Part shown: piece after piece, positions 9,291 to 46,351 of the stretch
Numbering within the stretch: position 1 is the stretch's first letter
How the letters are laid out: each line of letters begins with the position of its first letter
Origin: Candidatus Omnitrophota bacterium
GTDB taxonomy: Bacteria; Omnitrophota; Gorgyraeia; Zapsychrales; Fredricksoniimonadaceae
NCBI GenBank assembly: GCA_903860135.1
Contig: CAIOPG010000006.1
Location: 21,117 to 85,116 of the forward strand
DNA length: 64,000 bases
Direction of reading: 5' to 3'
Notes under the pieces: generated by a model
What the model saw: only the letters and a program-made list of their open reading frames with translations
The model's database searches: none
Told to the model about the DNA's origin: nothing
Made by a program: the position numbers and the translations under genes

Positions 9291-9307
9291 TTCCTTTGTG
9301 AAGAAAG

Positions 9308-9414
9308 TCTAAGGGCAAACTACTTGAAAAAGTAGGGCGCAAAGCCGTGAGCCTGAACCCGTCGTGTTGCGGGAAGGTTGTCTGGTTGCCGATGTGAGTA
9401 CGTTAACTCACGGC
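9308..9414 (+). promoter_or_regulatory. c-di-GMP-I (GEMM) riboswitch aptamer candidate
   Basis: AAGGGCAAACuacuuGAAAAAaguagGGCGCAAAGCCgugaGCCUGAACC...GUUGCCGAUG closely parallels the Vibrio Vc2 aptamer GGGCAAACcauucGAAAgagugGGACGCAAAGCCuccgGCCUAAACC...GUUACCGAUGG. A GNRA-type hairpin is present. The outer stem gccgugag/cucacggc closes the element. Confidence 0.6.
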
Positions 9415-9499: not shown

Positions 9500-11140
9500 A
9501 TGGGGCGTTATTTATCGATAACCTTTGCGGCTACAGTCGCAATTATTTCTTTATTTCCTTTACATAATGTTGCGGCGAGGGAAGATATTCCTATGATGAT
9601 GCCGCAGGAACAACCCATGATGCCATTCCCTTATCAAATGCCCGTTAATCCTGGTGTGCCTGTGCCGGCAACGGGGTCTGTTGTGCCGTTGCCCGTGCCT
9701 GTGTTGCCCAAGGGGGATGCCCTGGTTGCCTGGATGGCGTCTAATGTCAGTTCCAAGACAGGCATGTTTTTCAGTTTTCAGGTCTTACCTGAAGAAAAAG
9801 CCGAGATCTACGGTGCCATGGGCGAGGCTTCTTCTGTGCCCGGGATCGTTGAACGCACCATTGTCGAAGAAGGGCTGGATATTTACGATGGCGCTGTCGG
9901 GCAGATCGCGTTGACCGTTGCCGGCGGGGAGGATAAATTAGCAGTGGCCAGGCATCAACTGGATGTGTACTGGTCAGGAAAATTGGAGAGCCTGATCAGT
10001 ATCCGGGCAGGGTATCCTAATTATAATTTTGTTTATGATCCCAAAGATCCGGAGGTCGTGACGTCGTTGCTGACAGACGAGGGCCGGCGCGGATTTATTT
10101 TTCGTATCATCAATGCCAATGGCAACTACCTGGTGCGGGATCCCTTGGACGGCAAGGAACGGATGGCGGGTTTCCCGGAAGCACCGGATCTACACTGGGA
10201 AGACTGGAAGCCGGTTGCCGGAGAGAATGCCTGGATCGTGATCGCGGCCATGCAGTTGTATCACAAAGAGTATTATAAAGCGGATGTGGATCAATACGTT
10301 GCGCCTGAAGGACCTGTCGAACTGCGCCTTGCCGAAGAATTGGCGCGTGCGGCCATGGTCCTGCAATCGGAGACCGGCGGCATAAGGATGGCACCGATAG
10401 GGACGTACCGTGAGAATGAATTTTATTCAACGTCCACCCAGGGCCAGTGGTGGTACAACCAGATTTCGACAGAGAATAATCTTTCCTGGTACAGCGCGTT
10501 CCGGATGCTGTACCGTGTGACCAGCAAAGAGATCTATCTCCAGGCGATGCAGAAGATGGCAGGTTTCTTCAAGCAGGTTTATGATCCGGTAACGCAGACT
10601 TTTTATCAGGGGATGACCTATAAAGCAGGTGTCTGGCAGGTGAACAGCTCGAATTTTGCGGTGGATGTGCAGACCTGGGGTATTTTATCGCTCGGCGCGG
10701 CTACCATTGAAGACTGGTTCGGAGAGGGCGTTGCCTATTCATTCTGGGCGAAGGCGCGGGAATATTCGGGCACCTGTAATGATCAAGGCTTATTGATGGG
10801 CGTGGGGTATACCAAAGAAAAAGGCCGTGTTTCTGTGGAGTGGAGCGCAGGGGCGATCATGGCGGCGCGTGAACTGGCGGTATTCTATCGTAATTCCCAT
10901 CGTGAACTGGCGCAGGCCGCGGGGCACGATGCGGAGCAGATGCGTGTCGGCATGGAATTACTGCGCCGCGACCTCCCGGGAGGCCAGTCTGCTTATGCCT
11001 ATTCATCCAAACGCGGCTGGATCCCTTTTGGCTGGAATTCGCATGACCCGCGTGTCGTCAGCCTGGCGTCGACCGGTTGGATGTTCTTTGTTGACAAGAA
11101 ATTTAATCCTTTTTGGCTCGATGGCAAAGGCCAGGACTGA
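9500..11140 (+). CDS. Secreted hypothetical protein with a Pro/Met-rich linker; possibly an (alpha/alpha)-barrel polysaccharide-active enzyme (weak)
   Basis: Signal peptide MGRYLSITFAATVAIISLFPLHNVAA. AGGAGG RBS. Trp/Tyr-rich motifs (WWYNQISTENNLSWY, AWIVIAAMQLY). No confident family assignment. Confidence 0.7.
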   Translation: MGRYLSITFAATVAIISLFPLHNVAAREDIPMMMPQEQPMMPFPYQMPVNPGVPVPATGSVVPLPVPVLPKGDALVAWMASNVSSKTGMFFSFQVLPEEKAEIYGAMGEASSVPGIVERTIVEEGLDIYDGAVGQIALTVAGGEDKLAVARHQLDVYWSGKLESLISIRAGYPNYNFVYDPKDPEVVTSLLTDEGRRGFIFRIINANGNYLVRDPLDGKERMAGFPEAPDLHWEDWKPVAGENAWIVIAAMQLYHKEYYKADVDQYVAPEGPVELRLAEELARAAMVLQSETGGIRMAPIGTYRENEFYSTSTQGQWWYNQISTENNLSWYSAFRMLYRVTSKEIYLQAMQKMAGFFKQVYDPVTQTFYQGMTYKAGVWQVNSSNFAVDVQTWGILSLGAATIEDWFGEGVAYSFWAKAREYSGTCNDQGLLMGVGYTKEKGRVSVEWSAGAIMAARELAVFYRNSHRELAQAAGHDAEQMRVGMELLRRDLPGGQSAYAYSSKRGWIPFGWNSHDPRVVSLASTGWMFFVDKKFNPFWLDGKGQD

Positions 11141-11258: not shown

Positions 11259-13466
11259 TTGAATATAAGAGTGATAGCGCACAGATGCTTGATGCTTTTT
11301 TTGATGCTGACTTTAGCGGCGTCAGATGTGCGTGTCTATGCGCAGGGAGTTCCCCCACCCGGCACCCGCCTGGCCTTGAGCCCTGTTTTCGCGCCGCCGC
11401 TACTCAAGGGCATCAAGGTGTTCCGCAACGATCCTTTTCGTTTTGATTTCATTTTGGATAAGGGGGATGTCCATCAACCGCTGCCCAGCGAACTTGAAAT
11501 AAAGCGCCTGATCAAATACTTCCTCGCTTCTTTGACGGTGCCCGAGAAAGATTTGTGGGTCAATTTAAGCCCTTATGAAAAAGACCGCATTGTGCCCGAA
11601 GCCTTTGGCCAGACCGAAATGGGGCGTGACTTACTGGCTCAAGACTACATTCTCAAACAGATAACAGCGTCAGTGATTTATCCTGATGAAAAAGTCGGCA
11701 AGGAATTTTGGTCTAAAGTCTATGCCGAAGCTCAGAAACGCTACGGCACCACCGACATCCCCGTCGACACTTTCAACAAAGTCTGGATCACCCCCGCTAA
11801 AGCCACCGTCTACGAACACCAAGACGCCGCCTATGTTGTCGAATCCAGGTTAAAGGTCATGTTGGAGTCCGATTATAAAGCCGCTATAGAAAATAAGGAA
11901 TTCGCACGTAGGGGCGGGTCCGTGACCCGCCCTATTTTATTAAATACGCCCCCAGCGTCACCCGCCCCCGCCGCAGCGTGGGGCGGGCATGGGAGGGGGG
12001 ATGACATCGCCAAACAAGTCCTCCGCGACGTCATCATCCCTATCCTCAACAAAGAAGTCAACGAAGGCCAAAACTTCGCCACCCTGCGCCAGGTCTACAA
12101 TTCCCTTATCCTTGCCACTTGGTATAAGCGTAAAGTCAAAACCAGCATCATGGGCAAGGCGTACGTCGATCAGAAGAAAGTTTCTGGCATTGACATCGCC
12201 GACAAGAACGAAAAAGAAAAGATCTGGTCTCAATATGTTGAAGCTTTCAAGAGGGGTGCTTTTAATCTGATCAAGGAAGAGAAAGACACGACGACTCAAG
12301 AAATGATCCCGCGGCAGTATTTTTCCGGTGGGGCGGATATGTCGATGGAGGTTTTTGAGGTAACAGATGCGGCCATGCCAGCAGAGGTAAATATTGATAA
12401 TTGCAGTATCGTAAATGTTGATGGGGGTATGCTGTTAGTGAATTCCGGTCTATCTAATCGCAAATGGGTAACAACTGATTTATTTGAACACAATCCACGG
12501 AAGTTTATGTATTCTGTAAAAATGTCTGGCCTTGCCAGGCTATTAAAACCACCAGCACAAGGCGATCCAATTTCGTATTCACTTGCTTTGATCAGTGATA
12601 GTTATTTGAAAACATTTAATCGAGGTGGTGGTGGCAATGTTGGATTAGTCTTTGATTTTGCGGATGAGGATGTTCTGGCAATTTTGGCATCGATGAACGA
12701 TATCGCGGCCTTTGATAAGACAGAGGAGACGCAACGTGAATTCATTAAAAAACAATTAAAACGTGATCCTAGTAATGTTATGTATCAAACTATTGTTGAC
12801 AATAGTCCTCCTAGGCAGCTTGCTATTGTGCCTGAAGAATTGATTAGGGCTTCAATCAAGGCAGGAAATAAGAATAATGAAGTAATTGTTAAGAATAATT
12901 TAACTCTGCAACCTAAAGCAATTATCTTGATTGTAAGGTGTCAGGGAGGATCACGTTTGTTTCGGGAAGATGTCGATGCCTTAAAGGTTAATCCAATGTT
13001 AAGTGAGGTCTATTCTGCAATGACAGCTGGGAAATTACCAGTTGTTATTGTCGGTGAAAATGGTTCCCCATTGAAGACTGCTAGGAGAATCTTTAAGCAT
13101 ATGTTTAGGGATCTTCAGGAAACAAGACCGTTCTTTTTTGAAAAGAAGTCTGGCCCATCGCCGGCAAAGTCCGGGTTTATAGGATGGATCGGTGTGTTCG
13201 TGAAGCAAAATCCTTCTGCTATTACACGTATAGATCGTGGCCAGAAGAATAGTGACAATGCCGAGAAGCTTGGCGGTATCGACCTTGATCCGGCCAAGAT
13301 CGACTTAAGTACAAAGAATTCCGGCGGCGAAATTGCGTTCAACCTCGACCCCGCGATGCTCGCCCGTATGCAGCATGCTTCTGGGATTTCGCCTGTTATT
13401 GTCAGTGTGCACCCGATGGAAAGCCTTTCGGCATTTCTGGGGATTGTGAAGCCGGGAGGGCGGTAG
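11259..13466 (+). CDS. Secreted protein of an uncharacterised paralogous family (paralog A, 735 aa)
   Basis: Signal peptide ending VYAQ. A roughly 300-aa N-terminal domain is highly similar to the 54826 gene (LIKYFLASLT, EEDLWVNLSPYE, GTTDIPVDTFNKVWIT, LKVMLESDY, EVNEGQNFA, PR.YFSGG). The last about 40 aa also match (DPAMLARMQ / DPIMVAEFQ). The central and C-terminal portions are AT-rich. TTG start; GTG at 11271 or ATG at 11292 are alternatives. Confidence 0.8.
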   Translation: MNIRVIAHRCLMLFLMLTLAASDVRVYAQGVPPPGTRLALSPVFAPPLLKGIKVFRNDPFRFDFILDKGDVHQPLPSELEIKRLIKYFLASLTVPEKDLWVNLSPYEKDRIVPEAFGQTEMGRDLLAQDYILKQITASVIYPDEKVGKEFWSKVYAEAQKRYGTTDIPVDTFNKVWITPAKATVYEHQDAAYVVESRLKVMLESDYKAAIENKEFARRGGSVTRPILLNTPPASPAPAAAWGGHGRGDDIAKQVLRDVIIPILNKEVNEGQNFATLRQVYNSLILATWYKRKVKTSIMGKAYVDQKKVSGIDIADKNEKEKIWSQYVEAFKRGAFNLIKEEKDTTTQEMIPRQYFSGGADMSMEVFEVTDAAMPAEVNIDNCSIVNVDGGMLLVNSGLSNRKWVTTDLFEHNPRKFMYSVKMSGLARLLKPPAQGDPISYSLALISDSYLKTFNRGGGGNVGLVFDFADEDVLAILASMNDIAAFDKTEETQREFIKKQLKRDPSNVMYQTIVDNSPPRQLAIVPEELIRASIKAGNKNNEVIVKNNLTLQPKAIILIVRCQGGSRLFREDVDALKVNPMLSEVYSAMTAGKLPVVIVGENGSPLKTARRIFKHMFRDLQETRPFFFEKKSGPSPAKSGFIGWIGVFVKQNPSAITRIDRGQKNSDNAEKLGGIDLDPAKIDLSTKNSGGEIAFNLDPAMLARMQHASGISPVIVSVHPMESLSAFLGIVKPGGR

Positions 13467-13591: not shown

Positions 13592-13664
13592 GGGCCTCTA
13601 GCTCATCTGGTAGAGCAAGTGACTCTTAATCACTTGGTACCGAGTTCGACTCTCGGGAGGCCCA
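13592..13664 (+). tRNA. tRNA-Lys (anticodon CTT)
   Basis: Cloverleaf folded by hand: acceptor GGGCCTC/GAGGCCC, D-stem GCTC/GAGC, anticodon stem AGTGA/TCACT with loop CTCTTAA, T-stem CCGAG/CTCGG with TTCGACT loop, discriminator A. Length 73 nt; CCA is not encoded. Confidence 0.85.
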
Positions 13665-13672
13665 CTATTTAG

Positions 13673-13708
13673 AAAAGCCGTATCCCTTTTGGGATATGGC
13701 TTTTCTAT
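13673..13708 (+). terminator. Intrinsic terminator downstream of tRNA-Lys
   Basis: 14-bp stem aaaagccgtatccc / gggatatggctttt with a tttt loop. Confidence 0.6.
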
Positions 13709-13762
13709 TTCTTGAGAGCCGACCGAGAGGAGAAGGAGCCCCGCAGGGCGACTGGAGGGCAC

Positions 13763-13781
13763 CGACTCTCGGGAGGCCCAC
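13763..13781 (+). repeat. Direct repeat of the tRNA-Lys 3' end (19 nt identical, here followed by CCA)
   Basis: cgactctcgggaggcccac at 13763-13781 equals 13647-13665 of the intact tRNA. Confidence 0.8.
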
Positions 13782-13985
13782 CATATTAACGACGAAGAAG
13801 CTTCTCTTTAACTGGGGGAGCTTTTTTGTGATCTTCCCACGAAAAAGTGGACACAACGAAGGGGTGGTGACAGTATGAGAACTAGCTCAAAAAACGGAGG
13901 TGTTCAGTGGCAGGAGAATCGAACAAGAAAAAGCAGTTTGACCGTGAATTTAAAATGTCTGCGGTCAAGACCTGATAGCTCATCT

Positions 13986-14010
13986 GTTGGAGCAAGTGAC
14001 GATTTGTCGA
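13986..14010 (+). repeat. Degenerate copy of the tRNA-Lys D-arm and anticodon stem (23/25 nt)
   Basis: tagctcatctgttggagcaagtgac versus tRNA tagctcatctggtagagcaagtgac at 13599-13623. Confidence 0.75.
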
Positions 14011-14096
14011 GTACAAGGATTATTTGCAGGATATTAGTGAGGCCTCTTTTACAATCTCTTCTTGAGATTGTTGAGCAATAAAAATCATTTCCCCCC

Positions 14097-14125
14097 TTGC
14101 ATTTTCCATAAATAGAGAGTATATT
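14097..14125 (+). promoter_or_regulatory. Putative sigma70 promoter (TTGCAT, 17-nt spacer, TATATT)
   Basis: TTGCAT 14097-14102. TATATT 14120-14125. Confidence 0.45.
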
Positions 14126-14132
14126 TAAAACA

Positions 14133-14319
14133 TAGACAAGGTCTCACTGAGTTGTAAGACCTAACACGGCCGAACAGGCCGTGACATTTATCGGGCAAGG
14201 TTGTCCGTAAATATAAAGTATAGAAGCTTTAGATATAGTCCTGCAAAGGGCTGGCCCAAAAGGGCGGAAGACAAAGACGTCTTCAATTCATCATCAATGA
14301 ATTGAAGACGTCTTTTTTT
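14133..14319 (+). ncRNA. Candidate small structured RNA or leader of about 190 nt (promoter to strong terminator), function unknown
   Basis: Bounded by the 14097 promoter and the 14274 terminator. Internal perfect hairpins ggtctcactgagttgtaagacc and cacggccgaacaggccgtg. No convincing ORF. Confidence 0.35.
14274..14319 (+). terminator. Strong intrinsic terminator
   Basis: 18-bp perfect stem aagacgtcttcaattcat / atgaattgaagacgtctt, loop catca, then a T run. Confidence 0.75.
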
Positions 14320-14500
14320 GTTTCAATGTTGAAAATCGGCAGAAGGTTTCAAATCAGATAAATGGAGGATCTATGGGGAAAGTAAATTGTTTGGGAAGGG
14401 ATTCGCCTTCTGGAGGGAGGTCGTAGCATTGTTGGGCGTGTGTTGTTTTAATAGGGAAGGTAGAAAACAAATCAAAGGTCAATAACAAAGGAGTAATCAC

Positions 14501-15727
14501 ATGAATTCTGGCGATACAGCATGGGTCCTTATTTCAACGGCCCTTGTCATGCTCATGACACCGGGGTTGGCGTTTTTTTATGGGGGGATGGTTCGACGGA
14601 AGAATGTCCTTAGTGTTTTGATGCAGTGTTTCTTTATCCTGTGCCTGGTGAGTGTGCTGTGGGTTGTTTACGGGTACAGCCTGGCCTTCGCACCCGGGAC
14701 AGGTTTCTGGGGCGGGTTGTCGTGGTCGATGTTGAACGGTGTCGGGCTGGATCCGTATGCTGATTATTCGGCGACCATTCCGCATCAGGCTTTCATGATC
14801 TTCCAGGCCATGTTCGCGGTGATCACGCCGGCGCTGATCATCGGAGCGTTCGCCGAGAGGATGAAGTTTTCTTCGTTTGTCGTGTTCATTGTCCTGTGGC
14901 TTACATTCGTATATGCACCGATCTGCCACTGGGTGTGGGGTATCGGTGGTTTTCTTCGTAATATGGGAGCGCTGGATTTTGCCGGTGGAACGGTGGTGCA
15001 TATCAATGCCGGTATTGCGGCGCTGGTGACCGCGCTCATGATCGGTCCGCGCAAGAATGCGGAGAAGCATATTCCTTCGCCGCATAACCTTCCGTTTGTG
15101 GCACTGGGAACGGCGTTGCTGTGGTTCGGTTGGTTCGGGTTCAATGCCGGTTCCGCGCTGGCGGCCAATGGTTTGGCGGCCAATGCGTTTGTCGTGACCA
15201 ATGTGGCGGCGGCAGCGGCAGGCTTGAGTTGGGCGATGATCGAGTGGTTCCGTAACGGCAAGCCGACGCTTTTCGGTGTGGCTTCCGGTGCTGTGGCAGG
15301 CTTGGTGGCGATCACGCCGGCGGCGGGTTACGTCAATGTGTCAGGGGCGCTCATTATCGGGCTTCTGGTGAGTGTGTTTTGTTATCTGGCTGCGGCGGTT
15401 ATTAAACCAAAAATGGGTTATGACGATGCGCTCGATGCTTTTGGCGTGCATTGTGTCGGCGGTATCTGGGGTGCTTTGGCCACGGGCCTCTTTGCCACGA
15501 AGCTGGTGAACGCGGCGGGCAATGACGGGTTTTTCTATGGCAATCCGGCGCAGTTCATGATCCAGGTGAAAGCGGTTGCGGTTACACTGATCTATTCCAC
15601 GATCGTAACGTTTATCCTGTTTAAGGTCGTAGATCTTGTTATGGGCATGAGGGTGACAACCAAGGAAGAGGATGTGGGCCTTGACTTGACCCAGCATCAT
15701 GAAAGAGCTTACACGGTATTGGAATAA
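14501..15727 (+). CDS. amtB: Ammonium transporter
   Basis: Motifs AWVLISTALVMLMTPGLAFFYGGMVRRKN and the canonical Amt TM core. AAAGGAG RBS. Confidence 0.95.
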   Translation: MNSGDTAWVLISTALVMLMTPGLAFFYGGMVRRKNVLSVLMQCFFILCLVSVLWVVYGYSLAFAPGTGFWGGLSWSMLNGVGLDPYADYSATIPHQAFMIFQAMFAVITPALIIGAFAERMKFSSFVVFIVLWLTFVYAPICHWVWGIGGFLRNMGALDFAGGTVVHINAGIAALVTALMIGPRKNAEKHIPSPHNLPFVALGTALLWFGWFGFNAGSALAANGLAANAFVVTNVAAAAAGLSWAMIEWFRNGKPTLFGVASGAVAGLVAITPAAGYVNVSGALIIGLLVSVFCYLAAAVIKPKMGYDDALDAFGVHCVGGIWGALATGLFATKLVNAAGNDGFFYGNPAQFMIQVKAVAVTLIYSTIVTFILFKVVDLVMGMRVTTKEEDVGLDLTQHHERAYTVLE

Positions 15728-15755
15728 TTAATTAATGAAAATGGAGGATAATACG

Positions 15756-16097
15756 ATGAAGATGATCATTGCGATCATTCAACCAGGGAAACTGGACGAT
15801 GTCCGTGACGAGTTATACAAGGCTGACATTAACCTGATGACAGTCACTGAAGTGCTGGGACATGGGCGTCAGAAGGGCGTCACCGAGATTTACCGCGGTG
15901 CCAGGGAGATGGGAAATTTCCTGCGCAAGGTGCGTCTGGAGATCGCGGTCAATGACACCTATGTCGAGGCTGCCGTAAAGGCGATCGTCAAGGGTGCCAA
16001 GACCGGTGAAACGGGTGACGGCAAGATATTCATTCTGCCGCTGGAGCAGTCTATCCGTATCCGCACCGAAGAACGTGGGAGTATCTCGATCGGCTAA
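15756..16097 (+). CDS. glnK: Nitrogen regulatory protein P-II
   Basis: MKMIIAIIQPGKLDDV..., the T-loop region RGAREMG, and position immediately after amtB. The start is chosen at the MKMII codon. Confidence 0.9.
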   Translation: MKMIIAIIQPGKLDDVRDELYKADINLMTVTEVLGHGRQKGVTEIYRGAREMGNFLRKVRLEIAVNDTYVEAAVKAIVKGAKTGETGDGKIFILPLEQSIRIRTEERGSISIG

Positions 16098-16272: not shown

Positions 16273-17319
16273 GTGAAGTCATTTATATTCATATCGTTGT
16301 TGTTGTTTGGTTTTTGGGTTACGGATGTATTTGCGCTGGACATGGATCTGGTGTCTCAAGGACTTGATGCGTATGCTAGGGAAAATAATCTCCCTGAAAG
16401 CGATGCGGCAGTGGCGACGACAGGCGTCGATGTGTCCGGCAGTGAACAGGCACCTGACATGGTTGTGATCCCGTATGTGCCGCAGGCTCCGGCGTTAAAG
16501 GTCGTGCGCAAGCAACATGAATTTGAGGTGGGTATTGAGCGGTATCAATACAAGTATCATGAGTACGCCGAGATCGGTTCAAAGTTCATGCATATGAGAG
16601 GCGCCTATAGCGGCATTTTTATGGCGTATGCCTTCCGCCCGGTCGACATTGATTCCATGGTCGAGCAGATCATCAATCTTTATCGTGTGGAATTGAGGTA
16701 TGCCACCGGTCGTGTTAATTATACAGGCGCTCAGCAGGATTCTTTGGGCAATGTTACCGGGTTTACTTATAATGGTGTTAATGATTTTGTATTTGAAGGG
16801 CGCGGGATCCTCGGTAATGAGTACGCACTGCCTCAGGCATGGACAGTGACACCTTATACGGGACTGGGCTATCGTTTGTTGAATGATAGTATGCAAGAAG
16901 CCGGCCCGGGGGGGTATGAACGGGAATCCAGCTACTGGTACTTGCCGTTGGGGGCGACACTGGCCAAAGATTTGCCGCGCGGCTGGAGATGTGAATACAA
17001 TGCCGAGTATGATTATTTTATTTCCGGGAAGCAGGTTTCACATCTTGAGGATATAGACTCGGCCCTTGATCCATTGGGGAATAAACAGAACAAGGGGTTT
17101 GGCTGGCGCACATCCTTGAAGGTGGTTAAAAGCTTTCCTCGCGTGAAATGGAGCCTTGAACCCTACTATCGTTTTTGGCACATTCAAAAGTCGTGTGTCG
17201 AGCCATGGACATCGCAAGGACAGCCTATTTCGGGGTCGGTTCCTGACACCATCATCGTTGGTTGGGAACCAGACAATATCACCCAGGAACTGGGTTTGCG
17301 CCTGGGGGCTCAGTTTTAG
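16273..17319 (+). CDS. Putative outer-membrane beta-barrel protein (signal peptide, C-terminal ...LGAQF)
   Basis: Signal peptide MKSFIFISLLLFGFWVTDVFA. Alternating amphipathic segments. Terminal Phe typical of OMP barrels. Function unknown. Confidence 0.5.
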   Translation: MKSFIFISLLLFGFWVTDVFALDMDLVSQGLDAYARENNLPESDAAVATTGVDVSGSEQAPDMVVIPYVPQAPALKVVRKQHEFEVGIERYQYKYHEYAEIGSKFMHMRGAYSGIFMAYAFRPVDIDSMVEQIINLYRVELRYATGRVNYTGAQQDSLGNVTGFTYNGVNDFVFEGRGILGNEYALPQAWTVTPYTGLGYRLLNDSMQEAGPGGYERESSYWYLPLGATLAKDLPRGWRCEYNAEYDYFISGKQVSHLEDIDSALDPLGNKQNKGFGWRTSLKVVKSFPRVKWSLEPYYRFWHIQKSCVEPWTSQGQPISGSVPDTIIVGWEPDNITQELGLRLGAQF

Positions 17320-46179: not shown

Positions 46180-46351
46180 CTTATAGCCGATAAAGGTAAA
46201 CCCGGGGAAACCCGGGGACACAAAGCGACAGACCTAATGTGCGCCATCGGGTAGTTGGGTGAAGGTGTTGATGGGGTTTTGTGGTTGGCGTAAGATGGTG
46301 GCTGCGTTGCCGAAGCGCGAGGGGAGATTCCCCAGCTTTTATCGGCTATAG
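46180..46351 (+). promoter_or_regulatory. Second c-di-GMP-I (GEMM)-like structured RNA candidate, with no obvious downstream gene
   Basis: GGUAAACccgggGAAAcccgggGACACAAAGCgacagaCCUAAu...CGGGUAGuUgGG...GUUGAUGG parallels the Vc2 motif blocks. A 15-bp outer stem pairs cttatagccgataaa with tttatcggctataag. The insertion is larger than in the canonical aptamer. Confidence 0.45.

Follow-up and report, generated by a model that had tools for sequence, protein, structure and literature searches.

A conserved leader of amtB-glnK in an Omnitrophota-like lineage is a predicted transcription attenuator, probably controlled by an ANTAR protein

The DNA directly upstream of amtB-glnK in the window, i.e., the whole 64-kb stretch of Omnitrophota-like DNA analyzed here, carries a unit made of a promoter, a series of hairpins, and an intrinsic terminator. 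Its sequence and arrangement predict that it is a cis-acting transcription attenuator, the 5′ leader of amtB-glnK, and not a free-standing small RNA (sRNA). We consider it probable that this unit is a genuine, conserved attenuator of the operon, most probably one controlled by a protein with an ANTAR domain.

RESULTS

A promoter, serial hairpins, and a strong terminator precede amtB-glnK

The leader interval lies between a tRNA-Lys gene and two open reading frames (ORFs) assigned to amtB and glnK by their Pfam domains (Table 1). The amtB start codon is an ATG located ~180 nt past the T-run of the leader terminator, as had been stated in the first-pass annotation of this DNA. That annotation also saw no plausible ORF in the interval, and we likewise found no convincing one, since the overlapping ORFs are spurious and span 32 to 37 aa. 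Its “well-formed sigma70-like promoter” is a more mixed case: the TTGCAT and TATATT elements separated by 17 nt are present and are conserved in five relatives, but “well-formed” was an overstatement, as only 3 of the 6 positions of the −35 element and 8 of the 12 overall match the sigma-70 consensus. With this score, the promoter was therefore not listed by a consensus promoter scan. At the equivalent place in the five relatives, a −35 element reading TTGAnA or TTGATT is separated by 17 nt from a −10 element reading TATATT or TATACT, and the distance from the end of the −10 element to the first hairpin (H1) is 12 to 14 nt in these relatives and the window. The consensus scan found no promoter-like site on the + strand between the terminator and amtB (14320-14500), and neither a sigma-54 promoter nor a TnrA/GlnR box was found when the region was inspected by eye.

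Table 1. Coordinates of the amtB-glnK leader and its neighbors in the window
Feature	Positions	Strand	Description
tRNA-Lys(CTT) gene	13592-13665		Own terminator at 13670-13707; upstream neighbor of the leader interval
−35 element	14097-14102	+	TTGCAT; 3 of 6 consensus positions; CTTG invariant across 6 aligned leaders
−10 element	14120-14125	+	TATATT; 17 nt 3′ of the −35 element; TATAnT invariant
H1, 5′-proximal hairpin	14139-14162	+	Hairpin predicted in 6 of 6 sequences, stem sequence different in each
H2	14165-14183	+	CACGGCC-GAACA-GGCCGTG; 7-bp stem, pentaloop; covariation
H3	14192-14207	+	CGGGC-AAGGTT-GTCCG; A1/G4 hexaloop; G4 invariant in 6 sequences
H4	14215-14230	+	AAAGT-ATAGAA-GCTTT; A1/G4 hexaloop; 7 nt past H3
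Expanded H4-H5 linker	14231-14267	+	37 nt; insert hairpins at 14236-14253 (GCAA loop) and 14254-14265; −16.0 kcal/mol
H5	14267-14284	+	GAAGAC-AAAGAC-GTCTTC; A1/G4 hexaloop; loop and 3′ arm within terminator 5′ arm
Intrinsic terminator	14273-14319	+	Perfect 19-bp stem at 14273-14315, 5-nt loop CATCA, T-run of seven T at 14313-14319
Spacer and ribosome-binding site (RBS)	14320-14500	+	GGAG at 14490-14493; no promoter-like site
amtB	14501-15727	+	Pfam Ammonium_transp, E = 4e-133
glnK	15735-16097	+	Pfam P-II, E = 2e-27
amtB-glnK	14501-16097	+	Operon predicted to be regulated by the leader

The surroundings of the leader showed several additional features. Partial copies of tRNA-Lys were found upstream, one of its 3′ end (13763-13784, ~95% of 22 nt) and one of its 5′ part (13976-14000, ~92% of 25 nt), and between them lies a 22-codon ORF (13907-13975, VAGESNKKKQFDREFKMSAVKT). 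The 22-aa peptide has no Pfam match and resembles the N terminus of an IS3-family OrfA. The layout of the region from 13592 to 14010 suggests a scar left by a mobile element that integrated at tRNA-Lys. On the other side of the leader, GlnK has 113 aa in every close relative and 120 aa in the window; between glnK and atpB, the window carries an ORF of 348 aa without a Pfam match (16273-17319), and glnK directly adjoins the atp operon in L082, L168, L170, and L172.

Folding of the + strand from 14128 to 14325 gave −83.4 kcal/mol, compared to −41.9 ± 4.3 kcal/mol for shuffled sequences (z = −9.7), and 0 of 200 shuffles folded as well. Seven hairpins precede or overlap the terminator (H1, H2, H3, H4, two in the insert of the H4-H5 linker, and H5), where the first-pass annotation had counted “two clean hairpins.” The perfect, strong stem that it attributed to the terminator is there, although with 19 bp instead of 18, and the structured unit of about 190 nt ends at this stem. 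A reading of the element on the minus strand was rejected. Owing to the symmetry of the hairpins, that strand has an equally good fold, but the T-run and the A1/G4 loops described below exist on the + strand only.

Three hexaloops and a terminator overlap match the pattern of ANTAR targets

RNA targets of ANTAR proteins contain hexaloop hairpins in which the first loop base is A and the fourth is G (A1/G4); in Enterococcus faecalis eut leaders, these are separated by a linker of 5 to 12 nt, and the second hairpin (P2) overlaps a terminator (PMC3369931). In the window, the A1/G4 pattern is present in the loops of H3 (AAGGTT), H4 (ATAGAA), and H5 (AAAGAC). These three hairpins fall within 198 nt, for which the mean of shuffled sequences is 0.17, and 0 of 2,000 dinucleotide shuffles reached three. 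The earlier structural reading had recorded neither the hexaloops nor the fact that H5 overlaps the terminator.

H5 shares 12 nt (14273-14284) with the 5′ arm of the terminator (14273-14291), and a single GTCTT can pair either with the 5′ arm of H5 (AAGAC) or with the terminator 3′ arm (AAGACGTC), making the two structures mutually exclusive. Since H5 (−6.1 kcal/mol) is weaker than the terminator (approximately −30 kcal/mol), termination is expected by default and read-through would require that H5 be stabilized. We therefore predict that H5 acts as the antiterminator hairpin, corresponding to P2, and H4 is likely the recruitment hairpin (P1). Overlap between H5 and the terminator, i.e., a 3′ hairpin exclusive with the downstream terminator, was found in all six leaders, and the leader stands directly upstream of genes of nitrogen metabolism, amtB-glnK, as is also typical of ANTAR targets. 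The H3-H4 linker of 7 nt is inside the eut range. The H4-H5 linker is inside it in L168, L170, and L172 (9 to 10 nt, unstructured) and outside it in L083 (28 nt, with one hairpin) and the window (37 nt), in which the folded insert may keep H4 and H5 close to each other. H1 and H2 are conserved structures without a role in the ANTAR model.

The leader is conserved upstream of amtB in close relatives

The best named homologues of AmtB came from Candidatus Omnitrophica/Omnitrophota metagenome-assembled genomes (MAGs). Scans of GTDB genomes and JGI metagenomes returned AmtB relatives with at most 78% identity among the matches listed, and among these listed matches no similar leader was found nearby. 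Closer relatives were gathered through exact-protein look-ups of the nearest AmtB homologues. One sequence (L081) was identical to the window, and five relatives were distinct, with AmtB identities of 89% (L082), 89% (L083 to L086), 87% (L168/L169), 84% (L170/L171), and 85% (L172). In all five, the promoter-hairpins-terminator unit immediately precedes amtB in the same orientation, and the genes located upstream of the leader differ between relatives (an SNF transporter, SpoVG, or a poly(A) polymerase cluster). A 77-nt block (14155-14231) is 89.6% identical between the window and L083, and the remaining intergenic DNA does not align. In L172, the T-run ends ~35 nt before the start codon of amtB with the RBS alone in between, an arrangement in which amtB would have to be transcribed by read-through of the terminator and which argues for a cis-acting attenuator rather than a free-standing sRNA.

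Analysis of the six sequences with RNAalifold predicted H1, H2, H3, and the terminator, with compensatory changes in 11 of 38 pairs. These changes are located in H1, in H2, and in the terminator, whose upper stem covaries. The stem of H1 differs in sequence in every one of the six leaders and shows compensatory pairs. The GC-rich H2 is invariant in five sequences, the form in relatives being CACGGCC-GAAAA-GGCCGTG and the pentaloop of the window being GAACA, and L082 carries three compensatory pairs (TTGGGCC...GGCCCAA). For the hexaloop hairpins, G4 is invariant in H3, H4, and H5 of every relative. H3 follows the consensus CGGGC-NNNGNN-GYCCG, in which loop position 4 is always G; H4 reads AAAGT-AAAGAA-GCTTT in four relatives and is absent from L082; and the H5 consensus AAGAC-RnnGRC-GTCTT is kept in all six leaders. 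The H5 loop of L168, L170, and L172 starts with G instead of A and could close to a tetraloop.

A more distant relative, L178, whose AmtB is 82% identical and encoded in an amtB-glnK-glnN-gltB cluster, carries two tandem attenuators without H1 and H2, in which H5 and the terminator remain. The second of these has an H3-H4-H5-like order with different stems, including an H3-like loop AAGGCA. A covariance model spanning H2 to H5 (R1), built from three seed sequences, found no further member beyond the six known leaders in ~1.1 Mb of related loci. Because of the linker inserts, R1 misaligned H5 in the window and L083 and hence was not used for pair counts. The full leader architecture was seen in just six distinct sequences from a narrow clade.

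A1/G4 hexaloops are enriched at terminators upstream of amtB

To place the leader in a wider context, we took the strong terminators of 158 nonredundant amtB loci and compared those lying up to 450 nt upstream of amtB with those located elsewhere in the loci. An A1/G4 hexaloop hairpin overlapped the 5′ arm of the terminator in 21 of 47 cases upstream of amtB and in 14 of 196 elsewhere (odds ratio, 10.5; P = 5e-9). With a laxer definition of the terminator, the counts were 23 of 84 and 26 of 1,125, respectively. When either A or G was accepted as the first loop base, attenuators of this kind were present at 5 of the 8 loci whose fetched flank contains an ANTAR gene and at 17 of the 150 others (P = 0.0014). 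The P2 hairpin itself recurs in the form AGAC-AnnGnn-GTCT upstream of amtB in L001, L095, L151, L153, and L158, which include contigs from human-gut metagenomes and whose AmtB proteins are 54 to 75% identical to that of the window. In L151 (AAGAC-AAAGAC-GTCTT), both the stem and the loop are identical to those of H5 in the window. This recurrence suggests that the P2 sequence of amtB attenuators is widely conserved.

GAF-ANTAR genes lie close to similar leaders in other contigs

To search for ANTAR genes, we built an HMM on four sequences of the ANTAR domain taken from PDB alignments. None was detected in the 64-kb window, either with this model or with a regular expression, and none was detected with the HMM within the 3 to 4 kb available around amtB in the five relatives carrying the exact leader. 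The same HMM found ANTAR genes in the flanks of seven other fetched amtB loci, all seven of which were confirmed by Pfam. One of these loci, the metagenome contig L087, encodes the closest metagenomic relative of AmtB among the matches listed (75% identity) and carries a GAF-ANTAR gene immediately upstream of its amtB leader. The promoter of this leader reads TTGACA-16-TATACT, and a hexaloop hairpin overlaps each of its three terminators; these hairpins include CGGGC-ACAGAT-GTCCG, whose stem is that of H3 in the window, and GGGC-ATTGAA-GTCC. The homologues of the L087 GAF-ANTAR protein are named as Omnitrophica/Omnitrophota proteins, and GAF-ANTAR proteins are common in Omnitrophota.

In Omnitrophica WOR_2 MAGs, a GAF-ANTAR gene adjoins glnN (L173) or lies ~4 kb from amtB (L175), and the corresponding leaders contain AGGGC-ATTGGA-GTCCT and GGAC-AAGGTT-GTCC, respectively, overlapping terminators. 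The loop of the L175 hairpin is identical to the H3 loop of the window, and hairpins of the H3 type, (C)GGGC-AxxGxx-GTCC(G), occur in the L087 and L173 leaders that adjoin GAF-ANTAR genes. Hexaloops that start with G were also found in leaders adjoining REC-ANTAR genes (L026 and L075). Like the window, the L087, L173, and L175 leaders combine a sigma-70-like promoter (TTGACA, 16 to 17 nt, TATAnT) with hexaloop hairpins that overlap terminators. Unlike the window, they consist of one to three tandem single-hexaloop attenuators and do not contain H1, H2, H4, or the AAGAC...GTCTT hairpin, and the covariance model of the window’s leader family did not detect them. Two or three tandem terminators, each with its own hexaloop, are found in L087 (698-925), L175 (9538-9800), and L178 (5520-5745), a layout of multistep attenuation as opposed to the single terminator of the window.

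No known Rfam family matches the leader

The first-pass annotation could not match the interval to the glutamine riboswitch consensus, and the Rfam searches agree with it. No family matched the leader when the whole window was scanned with cmscan at the gathering threshold, and the region from 13650 to 14550 scanned at E ≤ 10 gave spurious hairpin matches only (miRNA and CRISPR), so that no glutamine riboswitch or other known element scored. The L087 leader, used as a control since it adjoins a GAF-ANTAR gene, has no Rfam match either, and the Rfam negative is therefore uninformative about ANTAR targets. Elsewhere in the window, two c-di-GMP riboswitches exceeded the Rfam gathering threshold, c-di-GMP-I at 9304-9393 (65.6 bits) and c-di-GMP-I-GGC at 46186-46315 (61 bits). 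The former precedes two large ORFs without a Pfam domain, 9500-11140 (546 aa) and 11259-13466 (735 aa).

DISCUSSION

The features of the leader fit a mechanism in which an ANTAR protein would decide between termination and read-through; here, which protein acts, what signal it answers to, and in which direction it regulates are inferred. Transcription would start a few bases past the −10 box, near position 14132, and by default would stop at the terminator, so that a leader RNA of ~190 nt but no amtB mRNA would be made. Under nitrogen limitation, an antiterminator protein with an ANTAR domain, which in this phylum would most likely be a GAF-ANTAR protein and would be encoded elsewhere in the genome, would bind the hexaloops of H3 and H4 as they emerge. 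The same protein would then bind and stabilize the weak H5. With H5 holding the GTCTTC needed by the 5′ arm of the terminator, the terminator could not form and RNA polymerase would read through into amtB-glnK.

Parts of this scheme have precedents. In the model proposed for EutV, a recruitment hairpin is followed by an antitermination hairpin, the minimal site being a single hexaloop, and in the EutV-RNA crystal structure, G4 is the only base contacted specifically (PMC8934654). Antitermination by EutV was abolished by lengthening the eutP linker, and longer or shorter linkers were nonfunctional (PMC3369931, PMC8934654). The 37-nt H4-H5 linker of the window and the G that opens the H5 loop of L168, L170, and L172 speak against ANTAR control. 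The dual-hexaloop targets, i.e., E. faecalis eutP, eutG, eutS, and eutA with EutV, Klebsiella oxytoca nasF with NasR, and Pseudomonas aeruginosa ami with AmiR, share with the window the A1/G4 hexaloops, a 5′ recruitment hairpin, a 3′ hairpin overlapping the terminator, a short linker comparable to that between H3 and H4, and a nitrogen-metabolism operon (PMC3369931, PMC8934654). The window differs from them in having three hexaloops instead of two, the additional conserved H1 and H2, and the 37-nt structured insert between H4 and H5, and some of its relatives differ further by the G that replaces A at position 1 of the H5 loop.

ANTAR RNAs have also been predicted upstream of genes for ammonium transporters and P-II proteins, for instance, in Desulfotomaculum acetoxidans and at Clostridium thermocellum Cthe_1499 (Table S2 in PMC3369931). 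These hits share their gene context and predicted mechanism with the window, a likeness of context, as the table gives coordinates only, and they belong to Firmicutes, whereas the window is Omnitrophota-like. In Geobacter sulfurreducens, terminators precede glnK and amtB, and antitermination at nifH depends on the ANTAR regulator GnfR (PMC2995071). The GnfK/GnfR system thus shares with the window premature terminators in the leaders of nitrogen genes, with ANTAR-dependent antitermination under nitrogen limitation in the case of nifH (PMC2995071). GnfR is a phosphorylated response regulator, however, and the promoters involved are of the sigma-54/GnfM type, whereas the promoter in the window is sigma-70-like and the ANTAR proteins of related contigs carry GAF sensor domains.

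Other explanations of the leader were weighed against ANTAR control. An attenuator that answers to a different effector is unlikely on the whole, yet several observations speak for it. The H2-H3-H4 block, which would in this case be the aptamer of a riboswitch (e.g., for glutamine or another nitrogen metabolite) or the site of an unrelated RNA-binding protein, with H5 and the terminator as the expression platform, is the most conserved stretch of the leader (89.6% identity to L083 for H2 to H4), and the stem of H2 covaries. Furthermore, no ANTAR gene was seen near copies of the exact leader, within the 64-kb window or the 3- to 4-kb flanks of the relatives, and ANTAR control leaves H1 and H2 unexplained. 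However, the hairpins follow each other in series, without an enclosing helix or a multistem junction, and whole modules come and go: L082 has no H4 and L178 has neither H1 nor H2, but H5 and the terminator persist. Such gains and losses would be incompatible with a single integrated aptamer, which is therefore disfavored. The conserved loop positions are, moreover, exactly the A1/G4 positions of ANTAR targets, and the Rfam scan gave no riboswitch match, not even at E ≤ 10. We give a rather small probability to an extension of ANTAR control in which the H1-H2 module and the array of three hexaloops form a distinct, clade-specific leader RNA that goes beyond classical dual-hairpin attenuation. 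The terminated ~190-nt RNA might then, in addition, sequester the ANTAR regulator in trans as a sponge RNA and so feed back on the nitrogen regulon in the manner of EutX; alternatively, H2 might bind a second factor or ligand and integrate another signal. EutX/Rli55 is a decoy RNA that titrates an ANTAR protein.

The first-pass annotation had offered two possibilities, an independent sRNA or a leader of the nitrogen-uptake operon. It is the leader that is supported, by the five relatives, the spacing in L172, and the lack of a promoter-like site in 14320-14500, whereas the sRNA gained no specific support. An independent ~190-nt sRNA, acting in trans, for example, as a decoy of an ANTAR protein, with amtB expressed from a separate promoter, appears very improbable to us. 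It would account for a unit that has a promoter of its own and closes with a very strong terminator, for the position of the ANTAR-type loops of H3 and H4 outside the terminator, and for the 180-nt spacer to amtB in the window. It fits poorly with L172, in which the ~35-nt gap, RBS included, leaves no room for a second promoter, with the same absence of a promoter-like site upstream of amtB in the window, and with the position of the unit, which invariably precedes amtB directly and in the same orientation, even though the upstream neighbor varies. Hardly any credence is due to a chance or relic structure without a regulatory role, in which the terminator could merely insulate amtB from upstream transcription. 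The partial tRNA-Lys copies in 13760-14000, the possible transposase remnant nearby, and a promoter that matches the consensus at 8 of 12 positions only would be in keeping with a relic, but the unit is conserved in relatives that have neither the tRNA nor its fragments upstream, its stems carry compensatory changes, and none of the 2,000 shuffles produced three A1/G4 hexaloop hairpins.

An ANTAR-controlled attenuator would provide a model for the switching of ammonium uptake in an uncultivated Omnitrophota-like lineage, relying on protein-mediated antitermination and not on the DNA-binding regulators of model bacteria, and would add a further phylum to those with ANTAR-based control of nitrogen metabolism. 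Leaders of this common class are missed by Rfam models, and genome scans will therefore keep flagging them as “unknown structured RNAs.” The variation described here, with three hexaloops, structured inserts in linkers, G as the first loop base, and attenuators with single loops in tandem, could help to judge how strictly ANTAR binding depends on spacing.
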